Source: an uncultured Actinomycetota bacterium | Lineage (GTDB): Bacteria; Actinomycetota; Actinomycetes; Propionibacteriales; Nocardioidaceae | DNA: 64,000 bases | NCBI GenBank assembly: GCA_963769585.1 | Contig: CAVYMJ010000001.1 | Coordinates: 750,178 to 814,177, forward strand | Direction of reading: 5' to 3' | In this document: positions 5,150 to 37,004 of the stretch, piece by piece | Layout of the letters: each line of letters starts with the position of its first letter | Numbering within the stretch: the first letter of the stretch is position 1 | Translations under genes and position numbers: made by a program | The notes under the pieces: generated by a model | Told to the model about the DNA's origin: nothing | The model's database searches: none | The model's input: only the letters and a program-made list of their open reading frames with translations

Positions 5150-6276
5150 CCGATCAGCCTTCCTGCGACGCCGCGCTGCCGGCCAGCGATGCGCGTCGCC
5201 CACTCTTGGTCGGTGACCTGGTTGGACGGGTAGAAGGGCAGTACGTCGGGCAGCGAGGAGACCGGCACAACCTGCAGGGTCGGCCCGTCGGTCACCGGCG
5301 CATCGACCCGCTGCCAGCGGAACTGGAGGTAGCCACGGTCGTGGCCGAGCCGCTCCACCCAGTTCGCGACCCCCGGGTTGGTCTCGCTGACGACGAGGCG
5401 GATCAGCCCGTCGGGGTCGACCTGTGCCTGGTGGCCGTTGAGCGAGGTCTGGTGGTGCGTGTACTCCAAGGAGGTGTACCAGGGCGACCCGAGCTGGAAC
5501 CCCAGGTACGGCGCGTCACCACGCGGCACGGTCAGCACGATCGCCTCGTGGTCGGCGACGTCGTAGTGACCCACTGCGGAGTACTGCGACGAGAGCCCGC
5601 CCGGAGTCAGGCGGGGCGCCGTGATCGTGTTGACCGGCTCGTTGAGGTAGAACCACTCGGGAAAGGCGAACCAGGTCCTGATCCGGCCGAGCAGCATCTT
5701 GCCCGCCACCGTGTACCGCTTGGCGACGGCCTGCTCGGTGAGGACCGAGCCCGGCGAGGTCCCGATCGTGTCGACGCGCTCGATCGCGACGGTGCCGCGG
5801 TTGGCGGACCAGTCGTCGTAGACCTCGCGCACGGCGAGCATCGCGGCGCCTTCGGGAAGGTCGTCGAGGTGGAGCACGAAGGTCCCGTCCGGCTCGATGG
5901 TCAGCGACCGGTCATCGAAGGCGATCGACCCGTCCGGGGTCGAAGACGGCGTGTAGTCGCCGTTGAGGAGCTGGAAGGAGAGGTCGACGGTCGTGCCGCG
6001 TCTGCCGCGCACGACGTACGACGAACCGGGCCGCAGGTACGCGTGGTAGTAGACCGTGTCCGGGTTGTCGAGCCCCATCTTGGTGAACTGGTTGGTGCTG
6101 TTGACGAAGAACGGCCGCTCCACGTCGTAGGCCCACGCGAGCTGGAGACAGGCCCGGATCGAGCCCGCCAGGTAGTCCAGCCCCTCGACTCTGTCCTGGT
6201 CGGTCTTGATGAACGGCGCCCCTACGACGAGCTCCTCTGCCTCTTTGCAGGCAGAGAGGAAGGCGTCGAGAGTCAC
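5146..6276 (-). CDS. conserved hypothetical protein (DUF1214-like; assignment tentative)
   Basis: 376-aa ORF whose start overlaps the stop of the LLM gene. Its size and neighbours (SDR, sulfotransferase) match a conserved actinobacterial gene trio. The domain call is from memory only. Confidence 0.6.
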   Translation of the reverse strand: MTLDAFLSACKEAEELVVGAPFIKTDQDRVEGLDYLAGSIRACLQLAWAYDVERPFFVNSTNQFTKMGLDNPDTVYYHAYLRPGSSYVVRGRRGTTVDLSFQLLNGDYTPSSTPDGSIAFDDRSLTIEPDGTFVLHLDDLPEGAAMLAVREVYDDWSANRGTVAIERVDTIGTSPGSVLTEQAVAKRYTVAGKMLLGRIRTWFAFPEWFYLNEPVNTITAPRLTPGGLSSQYSAVGHYDVADHEAIVLTVPRGDAPYLGFQLGSPWYTSLEYTHHQTSLNGHQAQVDPDGLIRLVVSETNPGVANWVERLGHDRGYLQFRWQRVDAPVTDGPTLQVVPVSSLPDVLPFYPSNQVTDQEWATRIAGRQRGVAGRLIG

Positions 6277-7151
6277 TGGTTCACCTTGCTGATGACCGAC
6301 TGCGCGAAGCGCTCGAGATGCTCGACCTTCTTGGCCAGGGGCTCGGTGTCCGGCCCCTTGATGTACGGCAGCCGGAAACCCACGATCACGTCGGTCACAC
6401 CCTTGTCCTCGAGCCGTTTGCAGCCGTCGACGCTGAACGCGTCAATCGAGATGACGTGCTTCTCGAACGGCCGGTCGGCCACTCCCTCCTGCTCTCTGAC
6501 CTTGTCGAGCTTCTCCAGCAGTGCGTCGAGGTCGTCGTGCGGCCCGCCGCCATGCATCCAGCCGTCCCCACGGAGGGCGGCCCGTCGTAGCGCCGCGTCG
6601 GAGTGCCCACCGACCAGGATCGGGATGGGTTGGGTCGGCGCGGGGGTCTGCGTGATCGGCTGGATGTCGTAGAACTCCCCGTGGAACTCGAACTCCTTGC
6701 CGGTGGTGAGACCGCGGACGATGTCGATGCACTCGTCGAATCGCTTCCCGCGCTTCTCCCAAGGCACGCCCATCACTGAGAAGTCCTCACGCCACGGGCT
6801 GATGCCCACTCCCAGGCCCAACCTGTTGTCGGTGAGATAGGCGACGGAGGCGGCCTGCTTGGCGACGAGCACGGGCGGCCGGACCGGCAGCTTGAGCACG
6901 AAGGGAGTGAACCGCAGCGTCGTGGTGACCGCCCCGAGTGCCGCACAGAGCGTCATCGTCTCGATGAACTCCTTGCCCTCGAGGAACTCGCGGTCGCCGT
7001 CCTCTGTGTACGGGTAGGTCGAGTTGGACTGGCTCGGGTAGATGAGCGAGTCGGCAACGGTCATGGAGTGGTAGCCGGCGGCTTCGGCGGACTGCGCCAG
7101 GGGGAGGTAGAACCTTGCATCGGTCATCGCCTCGGCGTACGTGAATCGCAT
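6273..7151 (-). CDS. LLM-class (luciferase-like) F420-dependent oxidoreductase
   Basis: 292 aa. The N-terminus MRFTYAEAMTDARFYLPLAQSAEAAGYHSMTVADS and the segment LGLGVGISPWREDF...KRGKRFDECIDIVRGL are typical of the TIGR03619-type LLM family. Confidence 0.75.
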   Translation of the reverse strand: MRFTYAEAMTDARFYLPLAQSAEAAGYHSMTVADSLIYPSQSNSTYPYTEDGDREFLEGKEFIETMTLCAALGAVTTTLRFTPFVLKLPVRPPVLVAKQAASVAYLTDNRLGLGVGISPWREDFSVMGVPWEKRGKRFDECIDIVRGLTTGKEFEFHGEFYDIQPITQTPAPTQPIPILVGGHSDAALRRAALRGDGWMHGGGPHDDLDALLEKLDKVREQEGVADRPFEKHVISIDAFSVDGCKRLEDKGVTDVIVGFRLPYIKGPDTEPLAKKVEHLERFAQSVISKVNQ

Positions 7152-7161
7152 GGCGCAATAC

Positions 7162-7175
7162 TAGAACGTGTTTCA
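7162..7175. promoter_or_regulatory. KstR-type TetR operator candidate TAGAACGTGTTTCA (fits TnnAACnnGTTnnA)
   Basis: Read directly. It sits in the 45-bp gap between divergent starts 7151 (-) and 7197 (+). It is flanked or overlapped by the -10-like hexamers TAGTAT (minus strand, 7163-7158) and TAGGCT (7185-7190), each 6 nt from its ATG. Confidence 0.55.
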
Positions 7176-7196
7176 GTTTCAGGCTAGGCTCGCGGC

Positions 7197-7625
7197 ATGC
7201 TTGATCTGCAGACCATCTCGGACCGCCTCGAGATCGACGACCTCGTGACGTCGTACACGCGAGCGGTCGACACCCTGGACTGGGCGCGCTTCGACGAGGT
7301 CTTCACGCCGGACGCGACGATCGACTACACCGCGAGCGGCGGAATCAAGGGCACCCGCGACGAGGTGCGCGCGTGGCTCGAGCAGACGCTGCCGATGTTC
7401 TCGGCGATGCAGCACTACGTCGCACAGAAGGAGGTCCGCCTCGACGGCGATACCGCCGAGGTCCGGGTCTACCTGATGAACCCGATGCAGATCATCCAGC
7501 CTGACGGCGAGACGTGGCACATGGACGTCGGCGGCTACTACCTGCACCGGCTGGTTCGTACTCCGCAGGGCTGGCGCAGCCGTGAGCTGGTCGAAGAGCT
7601 CGCCTGGGACCGCAAGCCGCACTGA
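7197..7625 (+). CDS. SnoaL-like / NTF2-fold protein
   Basis: 142 aa. The pattern LEIDDLVTSYTRAVDTLDWARFDEVFTPDATIDY is typical of the SnoaL_4-type family. Confidence 0.7.
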   Translation: MLDLQTISDRLEIDDLVTSYTRAVDTLDWARFDEVFTPDATIDYTASGGIKGTRDEVRAWLEQTLPMFSAMQHYVAQKEVRLDGDTAEVRVYLMNPMQIIQPDGETWHMDVGGYYLHRLVRTPQGWRSRELVEELAWDRKPH

Positions 7626-34200: not shown

Positions 34201-35355
34201 ATGAGTCAGCAGGGTTTGTCCCGTCCGAGCCAGGTCACCGTCGCCGGTGGACTGGGGGTTGCGGGCGCCCTGATCTTCGTCCTCGCGCTCTTCGACGCGA
34301 TGTCCGCCACGCGCACCGTCGGCGCGCAGAACGCGGTTGCAGAGATGCTCGCCTCGCCGCCGTACGACGGCCTGGGGGTGACCGTCGACGAGATGCTCGG
34401 CTTCATCCGCGTCGCCCTGATGGTGATGGGCGCGGTAGCCGCAGTGGCGTTCGTCTTCGCCTTCTACCTCTTCCGGCGGCACAACGGCGCCCGGATCGGC
34501 TTCACGGTCTCCGCAGTCGTCCTCTTCCCCGGCCTGCTCGGCACGATGGGTCTCGGCTTCGCAACGATCATGATCTCGATCGCCGCCATCGGGCTGTGGT
34601 CGGAGCCGGCCCGGGACTGGTTCGCCGGCCGGCCCCCTCGCTCCAAGCCGGCGCATCGCGAGCCGCGTCACCAGGCTCGAGCAAGCGTCCCGGTCTCTTC
34701 TCAGGATCAGCCGCCACCATCGCCCTACCCGTTCGGGGCACCGATGCCTCCCGGTGCACCGCAGGGACCGGCGGCAGGCCCGGCGGCCCCGCCGTACGCA
34801 CCTGTGCCGAGCGACTGGCCGGCTCACCAGGGGGCATACCCCCCGCCGGGAGTGCCCGACGCGGACAAGCGCCCCGGATCGGTGGTCTGGGCGGTGGTGC
34901 TGACCTGGGTCTTCGCCTCGCTGACGACGGGCTTGATGGCAGTGGTCCTGGTGCTGCTGGCTGGTTCCCAGGCGAAGTTCGAAGAGCGGGTCCAGCGCGA
35001 GATCGACGGCGACGCGACCCTACGCGACCTCGGAGTGACCGCCGACCAGCTGATGACCTACGTGTGGGCGACCTGCATCGTGCTCCTGCTCTGGTCGGTC
35101 GCTGCGGTGGTGATCGCCGTCTTCGCCTACCGCCGCGCAAACTGGGCACGCATTCTGCTGGCCGTGTCGGCTCTGGGGGCAGCGGTGGTCAGCCTGCTGG
35201 GGATCCTGACCGTGGTCGCGATCGGCACGCTCATCCCCGCCGTCGTGGTGGTGTTCCTGCTGTTCGGCCGCAGTGCCAGCGCGTGGTACGGGCGAAGGCC
35301 CCAGCACCCCACAGCCCCGTACTCGCCCCCACCCGGCCGTAACCAGCCCTGGTAG
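34201..35355 (+). CDS. integral membrane protein made of two homologous halves joined by a Pro-rich linker
   Basis: 384 aa. The halves align by eye (GVTVDEMLGFIRVALMVMGAVAAVAFVFAFYLFRRHNGARI vs GVTADQLMTYVWATCIVLLLWSVAAVVIAVFAYRRANWARI). The linker is PPPSPYPFGAPMPPGAPQGPAAGPAAPPYAP. Confidence 0.6.
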   Translation: MSQQGLSRPSQVTVAGGLGVAGALIFVLALFDAMSATRTVGAQNAVAEMLASPPYDGLGVTVDEMLGFIRVALMVMGAVAAVAFVFAFYLFRRHNGARIGFTVSAVVLFPGLLGTMGLGFATIMISIAAIGLWSEPARDWFAGRPPRSKPAHREPRHQARASVPVSSQDQPPPSPYPFGAPMPPGAPQGPAAGPAAPPYAPVPSDWPAHQGAYPPPGVPDADKRPGSVVWAVVLTWVFASLTTGLMAVVLVLLAGSQAKFEERVQREIDGDATLRDLGVTADQLMTYVWATCIVLLLWSVAAVVIAVFAYRRANWARILLAVSALGAAVVSLLGILTVVAIGTLIPAVVVVFLLFGRSASAWYGRRPQHPTAPYSPPPGRNQPW

Positions 35356-35485
35356 GCACGCGGCGGGACGACGTAGAGGCCGAGCCCTCGGGCCGCAGGA
35401 CCGCCGTCGTGGGCGACCCCGTGGACCAAGCGCGTCCGGAACGCTGCTGGGACTCCCGACCGTGGTCGCAGACCTCGAGCAGGAT

Positions 35486-35869
35486 CTATCGGCCCGTGCG
35501 TTCCAGCAGGGCAGCCACCCGCTCGCGCAGCTCTGTCGGCCCGAACGGCTTGGTCAGGTAGCCGTCGGCACCCGCCTCCAGGGCGGCGTCCATCACAGCC
35601 CCGCTGCCGAGCCCGCTGACCAGGAGGATCGGGACGTCGGCGAGGGTCGGGTCCGCGCGCAGCGCCCGGGTCACCCCGACCCCATCCAGTCCCGGAAGCC
35701 GAAGATCGAGGAGGATGACGTCGGGGCGCTGGGAAGCAGCGGTGGGCAGCACCTCGTTGCCGTTGCTGACGGAGACGACCCGTACGCCGTTCTGCTCCAG
35801 CATGATCGCGACCAGGTGCCGCAGGTCGGCGTCGTCCTCGGCCAGGAGCACCAGCGACTGTGCCCTCAA
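35486..35869 (-). CDS. stand-alone response-regulator receiver (CheY-like)
   Basis: 127 aa with EDD, phospho-acceptor D in VILLDLRLPGLDG, LLVSG and YLTKPF. The TTG start overlaps the upstream stop (TTGA). Confidence 0.8.
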   Translation of the reverse strand: MRAQSLVLLAEDDADLRHLVAIMLEQNGVRVVSVSNGNEVLPTAASQRPDVILLDLRLPGLDGVGVTRALRADPTLADVPILLVSGLGSGAVMDAALEAGADGYLTKPFGPTELRERVAALLERTGR

Positions 35870-36780
35870 CGCTCGAGCACCGGCTTGGTCAGGGAGAGAG
35901 CCAACTCCTGGGCCCGCTGGGCTGCGGCTGCTCCCCGACGTAGCTGATCGAGGAGTTCGGTGGAGTCGGTGAGCTTGTCAGCCGTCGCGATCGCGCCGTC
36001 GAGCGAGAAGATCAGCACAGTCAACGCGTTGTTCAGGTCATGCAGGGTGGACAGGCCGTCCGGGCTCCGCTCGGCCGCAGGCACGGAGTCGACGACATCC
36101 GTCAGCTCTGCAATCCAGCGGTAGCCTGCTCCACTCTCAGTCCTCAGGTACGCCGGTTCGGTCGCGTCGTCGCCCAGCTTGGCCCGCAGCGCCCTGACGT
36201 GCCCGCGTAGCGTCTGGCGCATCTCGTCGCCGTAGCCGTCGCCCCAGACCTGAGAGGCTACTCGGCGGTGCGTGAGCAGCTTGCCGGGCTGGGTGACCAA
36301 TGCCTCGAGGAGCAGCCACTCGGTAGGAGTGAGCCGCACCTCCGTGCCGCCGACCTGGACCGCGCCGGCGGACAGGTCGATGGAGACCTCGCCGAATGTC
36401 ACGACCGGTGCCGAGGGCTCGGCTGAACGCCGCTGCAGGGCGCGCACCCGAGCCCGAAGCTCACCCAGGCCGAAGGGCTTCTGCAGGTAGTCGTCGGCGC
36501 CGCTGTCCAGGGCCGCCACCTTGCGGGCCTCGTCGTCGAACCCGGACAGGATGAGGATCGGAACCTGGAGCCAGCGACGCATGATGCGAGTCAGCTCGAT
36601 ACCGTCGATGTCGGGGAGCCGAAGGTCCAGGATGACCAGGTCGGGGGAGGCCGTGGCGGCGAGGTCTACCGCCTTGGCGCCCGTCTCGGCACTCAGCACG
36701 GTGTGCCCGTCTGACTCCAGCACGCGCTGCAGGACAGTCAGGATGGCGGGCTCGTCATCGACGATCAGGACCTTGCTCAC
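35866..36780 (-). CDS. response regulator: receiver + OmpR/KdpE-type winged helix + C-terminal DHp/HisKA-like (H-box) extension without an ATPase domain
   Basis: GTG 36780. Receiver residues VDDE, D52 in LVILDLRLPDIDG, ILILSG, YLQKPF. The wHTH ends at GYRWIA (about aa 224). The tail LSTLHDLNNALTVL ... AAAAQRAQELALSL matches the two DHp helices of NtrB/hybrid-type kinases; the His247 codon is at 36040-36042. Confidence 0.75.
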   Translation of the reverse strand: MSKVLIVDDEPAILTVLQRVLESDGHTVLSAETGAKAVDLAATASPDLVILDLRLPDIDGIELTRIMRRWLQVPILILSGFDDEARKVAALDSGADDYLQKPFGLGELRARVRALQRRSAEPSAPVVTFGEVSIDLSAGAVQVGGTEVRLTPTEWLLLEALVTQPGKLLTHRRVASQVWGDGYGDEMRQTLRGHVRALRAKLGDDATEPAYLRTESGAGYRWIAELTDVVDSVPAAERSPDGLSTLHDLNNALTVLIFSLDGAIATADKLTDSTELLDQLRRGAAAAQRAQELALSLTKPVLER

Positions 36781-37004
36781 AACTCATGTTAGGTCGGGGC
36801 AAGGCATCACCAACGAAGGATCAGGAATGGGGGTTACGGGAACTCACAGTTTCCTCACACGGGAAGCGCTGGGGCTCACGCCTCCGTCACCATGTCTGTT
36901 GCATGCTCTTTGTACCAGTTCAGATCGGTGTGGGGCCGATCGGGGGGGACGGGTAGAAGTTGACGGGTCGACCTCCCACGACCTCGACAGCACTCGGGAC
37001 CTAA

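Follow-up and report, generated by a model that had tools for sequence, protein, structure and literature searches.

The stretch analysed here, 64,000 nucleotides from an uncultured bacterium of the Nocardioidaceae (assembly GCA_963769585.1, contig CAVYMJ010000001.1, positions 750,178 to 814,177; hereafter the window), carries a pair of adjacent genes on its minus strand. The first encodes a 304-amino acid (aa) transcription factor of the OmpR type, in which a receiver and a winged helix are followed by a C-terminal tail resembling the dimerisation and histidine phosphotransfer (DHp) domain of histidine kinases. The second encodes a small single-domain receiver. An earlier note, made from the sequence alone, had singled out this pair, and its claims were compared with profile searches, structure predictions and related loci. 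The parts of the pair are as follows.

35866..36780, minus strand: regulator gene, 304 aa, comprising receiver, winged helix, linker and DHp-like tail (GTG start at 36778-36780, TGA stop at 35866-35868)
36442..36771, minus strand: receiver domain of the regulator, aa 4-113
36625-36627, minus strand: codon of Asp52, the phospho-acceptor of the regulator's receiver
36118..36348, minus strand: OmpR/PhoB-type winged-helix DNA-binding domain, aa 145-221
36058..36108, minus strand: flexible linker, aa 225-241, of variable length and sequence among homologues
35869..36057, minus strand: DHp (HisKA-like) helical hairpin without ATPase, aa 242-304 (63 aa)
36040-36042, minus strand: codon of His247
35486..35869, minus strand: single-domain receiver gene, 127 aa from TTG or 121 aa from a GTG at 35849-35851
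35705-35707, minus strand: codon of Asp55, the phospho-acceptor of the small receiver

The receiver and winged helix of the regulator matched Pfam Response_reg (E 6.6e-31) and Trans_reg_C (E 2.3e-18), in agreement with the intact receiver and OmpR/KdpE winged helix described in the earlier note. The catalytic residues D8, D9, D52, S79 and K101 show no variation across the family alignment, and neither do the ionic residues of the OmpR-type alpha4-beta5-alpha5 face (D96, D97, E107, R111, R117 and R118). Salt-bridge residues of this kind mark terminal receivers; since D96, D97, E107, R111 and R118 are kept, the regulator's own receiver fits a terminal receiver (PMC9981736).

Foldseek searches with the full AlphaFold model returned only OmpR-family regulators, with structures of KdpE, PhoP and MtrA on top. 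The closest structures were those of E. coli KdpE (47-48% identity over ~223 residues, 55% within the receiver), and KdpE also ranked first among NCBIfam models at 210.4 bits, under the equivalog cut-off of 325 bits. The two proteins are alike over the first ~224 residues, in the layout of receiver and winged helix and in the catalytic and alpha4-beta5-alpha5 residues, but KdpE lacks the linker and hairpin that follow in the window regulator. KdpD was not found: the window holds no catalytic and ATP-binding (CA) domain or DHp domain of a kinase, and no KdpD occurs in 12 related loci. No kdp transporter genes were present in the Pfam-annotated loci of the relatives, a search that did not extend to the window.

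After the ...GYRWIA segment the full-length AlphaFold model is disordered at residues 229-239 (pLDDT, the per-residue confidence score, <50) and then forms two helices, 242-268 and 274-303, at pLDDT 70-82. When modelled alone, the tail was a confident helical hairpin (pLDDT 89.7; predicted template modelling score 0.72), and the predicted hairpin carries hydrophobic heptads. As these helices reach the last residues of the protein, the open reading frame (ORF) ends where helix 2 ends; it had been noted before that the ORF stops where an ATP-binding domain would start, and Pfam gave no HATPase_c match to it.

The window tail has the H-box LHDLNNALTVL and, in helix 2, the motif LRRGAAAAQRAQELALSL. 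Of 24 family tails scanned singly, 21 matched Pfam HisKA (PF00512; best E 8.4e-8), and a precomputed PF00512 match is present on two homologues (P0075 and P0079). A profile of the tail was aligned by hhalign with DHp domains picked solely by their belonging to genomically adjacent kinases, at 91% probability (E 1e-6) and with His on His. When a tail profile was compared with PDB sequences, the best natural matches were the DHp domains of CckA, FixL, EnvZ and QseC, at modest E-values, and CckA HDFNNLLTAI was aligned with the tail H-box, again His on His. When 1.84 billion representatives were searched exhaustively with a profile, only 86 matches reached E<=1e-3; family members and fragments ranked first, and HisKA regions of complete kinases followed. 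The tail alone found nothing in a word-indexed search, where the family emerged only with the full-length query, and the monomeric histidine phosphotransfer (HPt) domain (PF01627) had no Pfam match to the window tail or to the 24 tails. We conclude that the tail belongs to the HisKA-type DHp hairpins, in their CckA-like HDxNNxLT form, with both helices complete and no ATP-binding domain, and the earlier identification as a DHp hairpin was upheld. In the alignment with CckA (5idj), its HDxNNxLTxL H-box falls on the phospho-accepting His, and the helix 2 motif RA..L..L is shared. Unlike in CckA-type kinases, no HATPase_c domain comes after the hairpin and no sensor or signalling helix before it, and a disordered linker joins it to a DNA-binding domain.

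The architecture is conserved across the Nocardioidaceae, which are actinobacteria of soil. In a full-length search, ~75 of the best 120 homologues were 288-357 aa long and aligned through the tail; named members occur in Nocardioides hankookensis, N. psychrotolerans, N. acrostichi, N. marinisabuli, Pimelobacter and metagenome-assembled genomes of Nocardioidaceae. In an alignment of 32 homologues with 42-76% identity to the window protein, His247 is invariant (32/32), the following residue (H+1) is Asp or Glu in all 32, and the Asn at H+4 (N251) is present in 31. Conservation is 90% or higher at N250, T254, R282, R289 and L293. At the hydrophobic positions between the H-box residues L, I, V or M is found in this alignment, and the linker ahead of the H-box is free to vary in length and sequence. 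The ratio of non-synonymous to synonymous substitution rates (dN/dS) was 0.07-0.23 for receiver and winged helix and ~1 or more for the linker. For the tail it was 0.06-0.34 among relatives that have a kinase gene beside the pair, and 0.24-0.57 between the window and those relatives. A scan of the genome collection by H-box pattern confirmed merely 6 loci, because the divergent tail of the window had been used for confirmation. The family therefore comprises conserved KdpE-like, OmpR-type transcription factors of the Nocardioidaceae in which a linker tethers a complete DHp hairpin without an ATP-binding domain.

This pattern of conservation bears on whether the tail is a non-catalytic module for dimerisation or docking, which would make the regulator a constitutive dimer or bind the small receiver, perhaps in its phosphorylated form, with the His kept for binding. 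The hairpin is confidently predicted and has hydrophobic heptads, the OmpR family acts as dimers, and dimerisation and protein-protein interaction are the roles that Galperin et al. suggest for regulators of the REC-PAS-HisKA type (PMC5847659). A docking role is nevertheless less likely, and in our estimate improbable, because the strongest constraint falls on the residues that define the HisKA H-box (H, H+1, H+3, H+4 and H+7) and not on the hydrophobic positions. By helical periodicity H, H+4 and H+7 lie on one face, which is probably exposed. The pseudokinase DivL does bind phosphorylated DivK, but pseudokinases of the DivL type have their His replaced.

The product of the second gene matched Pfam Response_reg (E 9.4e-27), and its residues D12, D13, D55 and K107 are invariant across the family in the receiver alignment, consistent with the CheY-like receiver with catalytic residues that had been described. 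The FATGUY motif of relay-type receivers was not clearly present in the small receiver when the beta4 segments of this alignment were inspected by eye. On the coding strand, positions 35866-35869 read TTGA, and a TTG start of the receiver gene overlaps the TGA stop of the regulator gene, as first reported. In the gene call of an independent assembly, the small receiver begins instead with the GTG that lies 18 nt further on (121 aa, with a 14-nt gap). The distance between the two genes in the window is thus 0-14 nt, by choice of receiver start, and in relatives the receiver starts -1 to +2 nt from the regulator stop. With two candidate starts, the bases of the proposed overlap stand and the exact form of translational coupling is uncertain. 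Among 12 distinct loci, 11 have a small receiver with all catalytic residues next to the regulator, and 8 have an adjacent kinase; the tail, with its His247, is conserved together with the stand-alone receiver.

We searched the window for kinase sequence in all six frames of the 64 kb, with hidden Markov models (HMMs) built from the kinase catalytic and DHp domains and the small receivers of the related loci. No HATPase-like sequence was found (best E 4.4), which confirms the earlier observation on HATPase_c, and neither a kinase-type DHp domain nor a third receiver was detected. Since no kinase is encoded nearby, phosphate input must come from elsewhere.

In the relatives, kinases are separate genes and vary in type and position. 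The loci closest to the window, with 70-76% identity (L003, L006/L007, L008 and L009; the L003 group), contain the regulator with its tail, a single receiver, one or more transmembrane (TM) proteins and a kinase. The additional block encodes a TM protein of 223-229 aa (not in L009), a TM protein of 208-211 aa and a REC-HisKA-HATPase_c kinase of 451-466 aa. SpoU, DedA, pyrE and an aminotransferase flank the group on one side, and a membrane protein, TetR and paa on the other. By blastn the window is colinear with these loci on both sides, minus the block of ~2.7 kb, and has in its place the following short gap.

35356..35485, no strand: 130-bp gap between the receiver gene and a convergent membrane-protein gene, at the position of the ~2.7-kb three-gene block in syntenic relatives

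An assembly artefact was ruled out as the cause of the missing kinase genes, as an independent assembly has the identical gene order. In a neighbour-joining tree of receiver plus winged helix, the window joined L003 and L008 with a bootstrap value of only 52%. Deletion of the three-gene block in the window lineage is the simpler reading, rather than its gain by the relatives.

Other loci are arranged differently. In L001, L011 and L013 the regulator and receiver are followed by a convergent MASE1-PAS-HisKA-HATPase kinase, and in N. marinisabuli (L002) the receiver is divergent from the regulator and lies beside a MASE1 kinase and another receiver. L004 and L005 have the regulator-receiver pair without an intact kinase. 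In L005 (N. acrostichi), weak remnants resembling a CA domain (E 3.9e-5) and an H-box (E 5e-5) were seen at ~5878-7395 on the minus strand, where the MASE1 kinase lies in N. marinisabuli, and the regulator-receiver pair is intact; this suggests that the neighbouring kinase decayed independently. The pair is kept without an adjacent kinase in at least three loci. The H-boxes of the kinases next door (SHELRTPIT and AHEIRNPVT) are of another type than the tail H-box LHDLNNALT, and this difference rules out a recent duplication of a neighbouring kinase's DHp domain as the origin of the tail.

A contig from JGI 3300043313 (P0011) lies at the same place in the syntenic region, and there the small receiver has been lost along with the kinase block. 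Its H-box reads HELDE instead of HDLNN, the sole such case among the 32. The joint occurrence of receiver loss and an altered H-box ties the H-box to the partner receiver. The P0011 regulator gene also extends ~80 nt into the convergent membrane-protein gene.

These loci speak to the proposal that the ORF is a decaying remnant of a hybrid kinase or gene fusion with no present function. The window lacks the kinase block of its closest relatives, its tail evolves faster than theirs, and P0011 has lost its receiver and degraded its H-box. Against this, the same truncated architecture recurs in most of the 120 best homologues, across several Nocardioides species; His247 never varies; dN/dS of the tail stays below 1; the window retains every H-box residue and every catalytic residue of the receivers; and no ATPase remnant exists in any frame of the 64 kb. 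The earlier note had held that an intact hybrid kinase colinear with the two ORFs in close relatives would speak for a recent deletion. A colinear kinase is indeed present there, but as a separate downstream gene and not as a continuation of the ORF. Because relatives keep the truncated architecture beside separate intact kinases, the tail is not a decayed kinase, and the remnant explanation, which the earlier note had offered as one of two, is barely credible.

A different role for the neighbouring kinases would be to treat the tail as the substrate of a split kinase, the ATP-binding domain of a separate kinase phosphorylating His247 in trans and the phosphate then passing to the receivers. 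Spo0B and ChpT keep the acidic residue next to the His, yet are not autophosphorylated. In favour of a split kinase, this acidic H+1 residue is kept throughout the alignment, it is required for the autophosphorylation chemistry of HisKA kinases (PMC3510030), and a kinase adjoins in two-thirds of the loci. The adjacent kinases, however, own a complete DHp domain of a different H-box type, and the pair survives where no kinase is adjacent. We consider this arrangement very unlikely.

A split version of the regulator itself occurs in a sister family. Pedococcus and Phycicoccus (Intrasporangiaceae), together with two metagenome contigs, hold the closest tail-less homologues (236-241 aa, 53-58% identity). 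An ORF of 75-81 aa trails the regulator gene at each of the four loci (L016 6719-6961; L017 1388-1633; L018 625-861; L019 4001-4225), with an 8-nt overlap in the two that have gene calls (L016 and L017). Its sequence, DHRVRNxLAALRGxLELA...L..L.RLE..LGV, is that of a His-containing hairpin, with weak matches to HisKA (E 0.0017) and HisKA_2 (E 0.044). The hairpin is under purifying selection, with a dN/dS of 0.15-0.2 between closer pairs, and the C-terminal tail of the ORF is unconstrained. Single-domain receivers flank the ORF wherever the contig covers those positions, and a MASE1 kinase lies near it in both loci long enough to tell (L016 and L019).

The exhaustive search of representatives also returned stand-alone H-box-hairpin proteins of 66-108 aa (P0135, P0137, P0140, P0152 and P0154; P0137 matches HisKA at 5.5e-9) and a 249-aa protein with receiver and hairpin and no winged helix (P0131). 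Bare DHp hairpins seem to be a recurrent autonomous unit, and such units may be more widespread than annotation shows.

For the window protein we tentatively favour the reading that the tail is a tethered, Spo0B-like DHp domain without ATPase, which exchanges phosphate through His247 with both receivers. The hairpin would most likely dimerise into a four-helix bundle, and His247 would swap phosphoryl groups with Asp55 of the small receiver and Asp52 of its own receiver, in the manner of Spo0B or ChpT. The two genes could then form a compact Asp-His-Asp shuttle, operating either as a relay into the regulator or, in reverse, as a drain to the small receiver; the direction of flow is not readable from sequence. 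The phosphate would be supplied by a separately encoded histidine kinase, a neighbour in most relatives. For the window locus it would have to come from a kinase encoded elsewhere or from small-molecule donors instead. The earlier note had proposed a module that acts as relay or phosphatase, with an orphan kinase as its source: the functional-looking H-box, the linkage to the receiver and the lack of a nearby kinase agree with it, while the mechanism itself we infer.

Several known systems are comparable. Spo0B of Bacillus and ChpT of Caulobacter are DHp-like bundles that cannot autophosphorylate and whose phosphate traffic runs between a receiver, single-domain or intermediate, and a terminal DNA-binding regulator (PMC3433190, PMC11210211). 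The gene set of the window (single receiver, DHp, and receiver with winged helix) mirrors Spo0F, Spo0B and Spo0A. Both Spo0B and ChpT retain an H-box resembling H-D-x-x-N. The isolated DHp domain of EnvZ ("domain A") can carry out phosphate transfer with OmpR and has phosphatase activity on phosphorylated OmpR. Although it is an engineered fragment and not a natural architecture, the activity of this bare dimer with OmpR indicates that a DHp domain without ATPase can be active. The nearest proteins mentioned in the literature are the archaeal "HisKA, no HATPase" and REC-PAS/GAF-HisKA proteins (e.g. AF_1472), which have a conserved His and no ATPase, and some of which contain receivers; phosphotransfer or phosphatase roles have been proposed for them and none has been studied (PMC5847659). 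They differ in carrying PAS/GAF sensors and no DNA-binding domain, whereas the window protein is bacterial and has its hairpin after the winged helix.

A number of observations weigh against the shuttle. The window tail alone reached only E 0.016-0.023 with Pfam HisKA (15-16 bits, cut-off 26.9), and no match to SPOB_a/SPOB_ab or HPTransfase was obtained for it (E<=10) or for the 24 tails (E<=1). Foldseek with the tail model returned generic and designed helical hairpins, none at E<=0.001, with the DHp domains of GacS and CpxA at E ~3; as such a search does not separate the tail from other antiparallel two-helix hairpins, Foldseek cannot classify it. Helix 1 starts just 5-7 residues ahead of the His, which therefore lies close to one end of the bundle. 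In the case of Spo0B and ChpT, the phosphotransferase is a protein of its own and still has a degenerate ATPase-like domain, while the DHp domain of the window is bare and fused to the regulator. The fused tail and the 75-81-aa ORF of the sister family aligned with a probability of only 19% in hhalign, His on His, and given this weak likeness the ORF is taken as a positional and functional analogue, with orthology unproven. In the window, the tail shows about twice the non-synonymous divergence of the tails of kinase-bearing relatives, which may reflect relaxed constraint following loss of the kinase genes. By eye, these changes cluster around the hairpin loop, and every conserved residue of the H-box, helix 2 and receiver catalytic sites is kept. 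Finally, the conservation of the H+4 Asn fits a phosphatase equally well.

The last point leads to the main alternative, a dedicated phosphatase, in which the H-D/E-x-x-N motif dephosphorylates the regulator's own receiver, the small receiver or both, and sets the decay of the signal with no net transfer. In HisKA proteins this Asn, found in all but one of the aligned homologues, is needed for phosphatase and not for kinase activity (PMC3510030), and Galperin et al. proposed exactly such a role for archaeal HisKA proteins without HATPase (PMC5847659). The invariant His and the always acidic H+1 stand on the other side, and a phosphatase leaves the tight linkage of a second complete receiver unexplained. 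Some HisKA kinases retain phosphatase activity after substitution of the His. A purely phosphatase tail appears unlikely to us, and the two activities are not mutually exclusive.

Should His247 exchange phosphate with both receivers, as we favour, the regulator would be a transcription factor with its own phosphotransferase. The Spo0F-Spo0B-Spo0A relay would then be contained in two genes, evolutionarily interchangeable with a split DHp protein of ~80 residues, integrating or draining the signals of several kinases and working on after kinase loss. We advance this wider picture with caution, as a possibility. To our knowledge, phosphorelays use either monomeric HPt domains or proteins of the Spo0B/ChpT type with a dead ATPase domain. 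If the favoured reading is true, a natural bare DHp domain is a sufficient and portable unit of phosphotransfer or phosphatase activity, found both fused to a terminal regulator and as a mini-protein of ~80 aa in a sister family. Two-component signalling would gain a wiring option, namely a regulator that contains its own relay or sink, and proteins annotated merely as "KdpE" or "response regulator transcription factor" would be explained. With cultured hosts available (N. marinisabuli, N. acrostichi, N. hankookensis and N. psychrotolerans), the prediction is directly testable.

All parts of the system are of known kinds, and HisKA proteins without ATPase are already catalogued in archaea. In the literature on DHp-only and HisKA-only proteins and on the REC-wHTH-DHp order (wHTH, winged helix), we found no description beyond the archaeal census (PMC5847659), in line with the earlier impression that this architecture is uncharacterised. 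We likewise found no account of a REC-wHTH-DHp protein paired with a single-domain receiver and with a split mini-DHp counterpart.

Two features upstream of the regulator gene may concern its expression.

36843..36880, minus strand: candidate autoregulatory operator, with TGTGAG-N5-TGTGAG at 36843-36859 and CGTGAG at 36875-36880
36786..36791, minus strand: -10-like hexamer TAACAT (TAGCAT in relatives), 5 nt upstream of the GTG start

The perfect direct repeat TGTGAG-N5-TGTGAG is accompanied by a third repeat, CGTGAG, 21 nt upstream. The repeats are conserved in five syntenic loci and have no second exact copy in the window, and their spacing is that of phased direct repeats, typical of OmpR-family sites. 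They are a candidate autoregulatory operator of the OmpR type. From the position of the -10-like hexamer, the regulator mRNA may be leaderless; a consensus promoter scan found nothing, including at this hexamer. Nothing was found in the 130-bp downstream gap by promoter and terminator scans or by RNA folding.

The operon of the close relatives includes a protein of ~210 aa that is not in the window (L003 11996-12628; L006 10019-10645; L008 5141-5776; L009 4950-5582). It has three N-terminal TM helices and a weak match to ETR1_N, the ethylene-receptor domain (E 2.5e-5 to 5.4e-4, in three of the four orthologues), with a C-x-x-H-H stretch in the ETR1_N-like part. Its C-terminal helix, LEINDNVLQGL, resembles a HisKA_3 H-box with Asn replacing His. 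This ETR1_N-like protein may sense the signal on behalf of the soluble REC-HisKA-HATPase kinase encoded beside it. On the far side of the gap, the window encodes at 34201-35355 on the plus strand a proline-rich multi-TM protein of 384 aa, which belongs to no Pfam family and whose gene converges on that of the receiver. All syntenic relatives keep it at the same position, beside a TetR regulator and the paa (phenylacetate-CoA oxygenase) genes.

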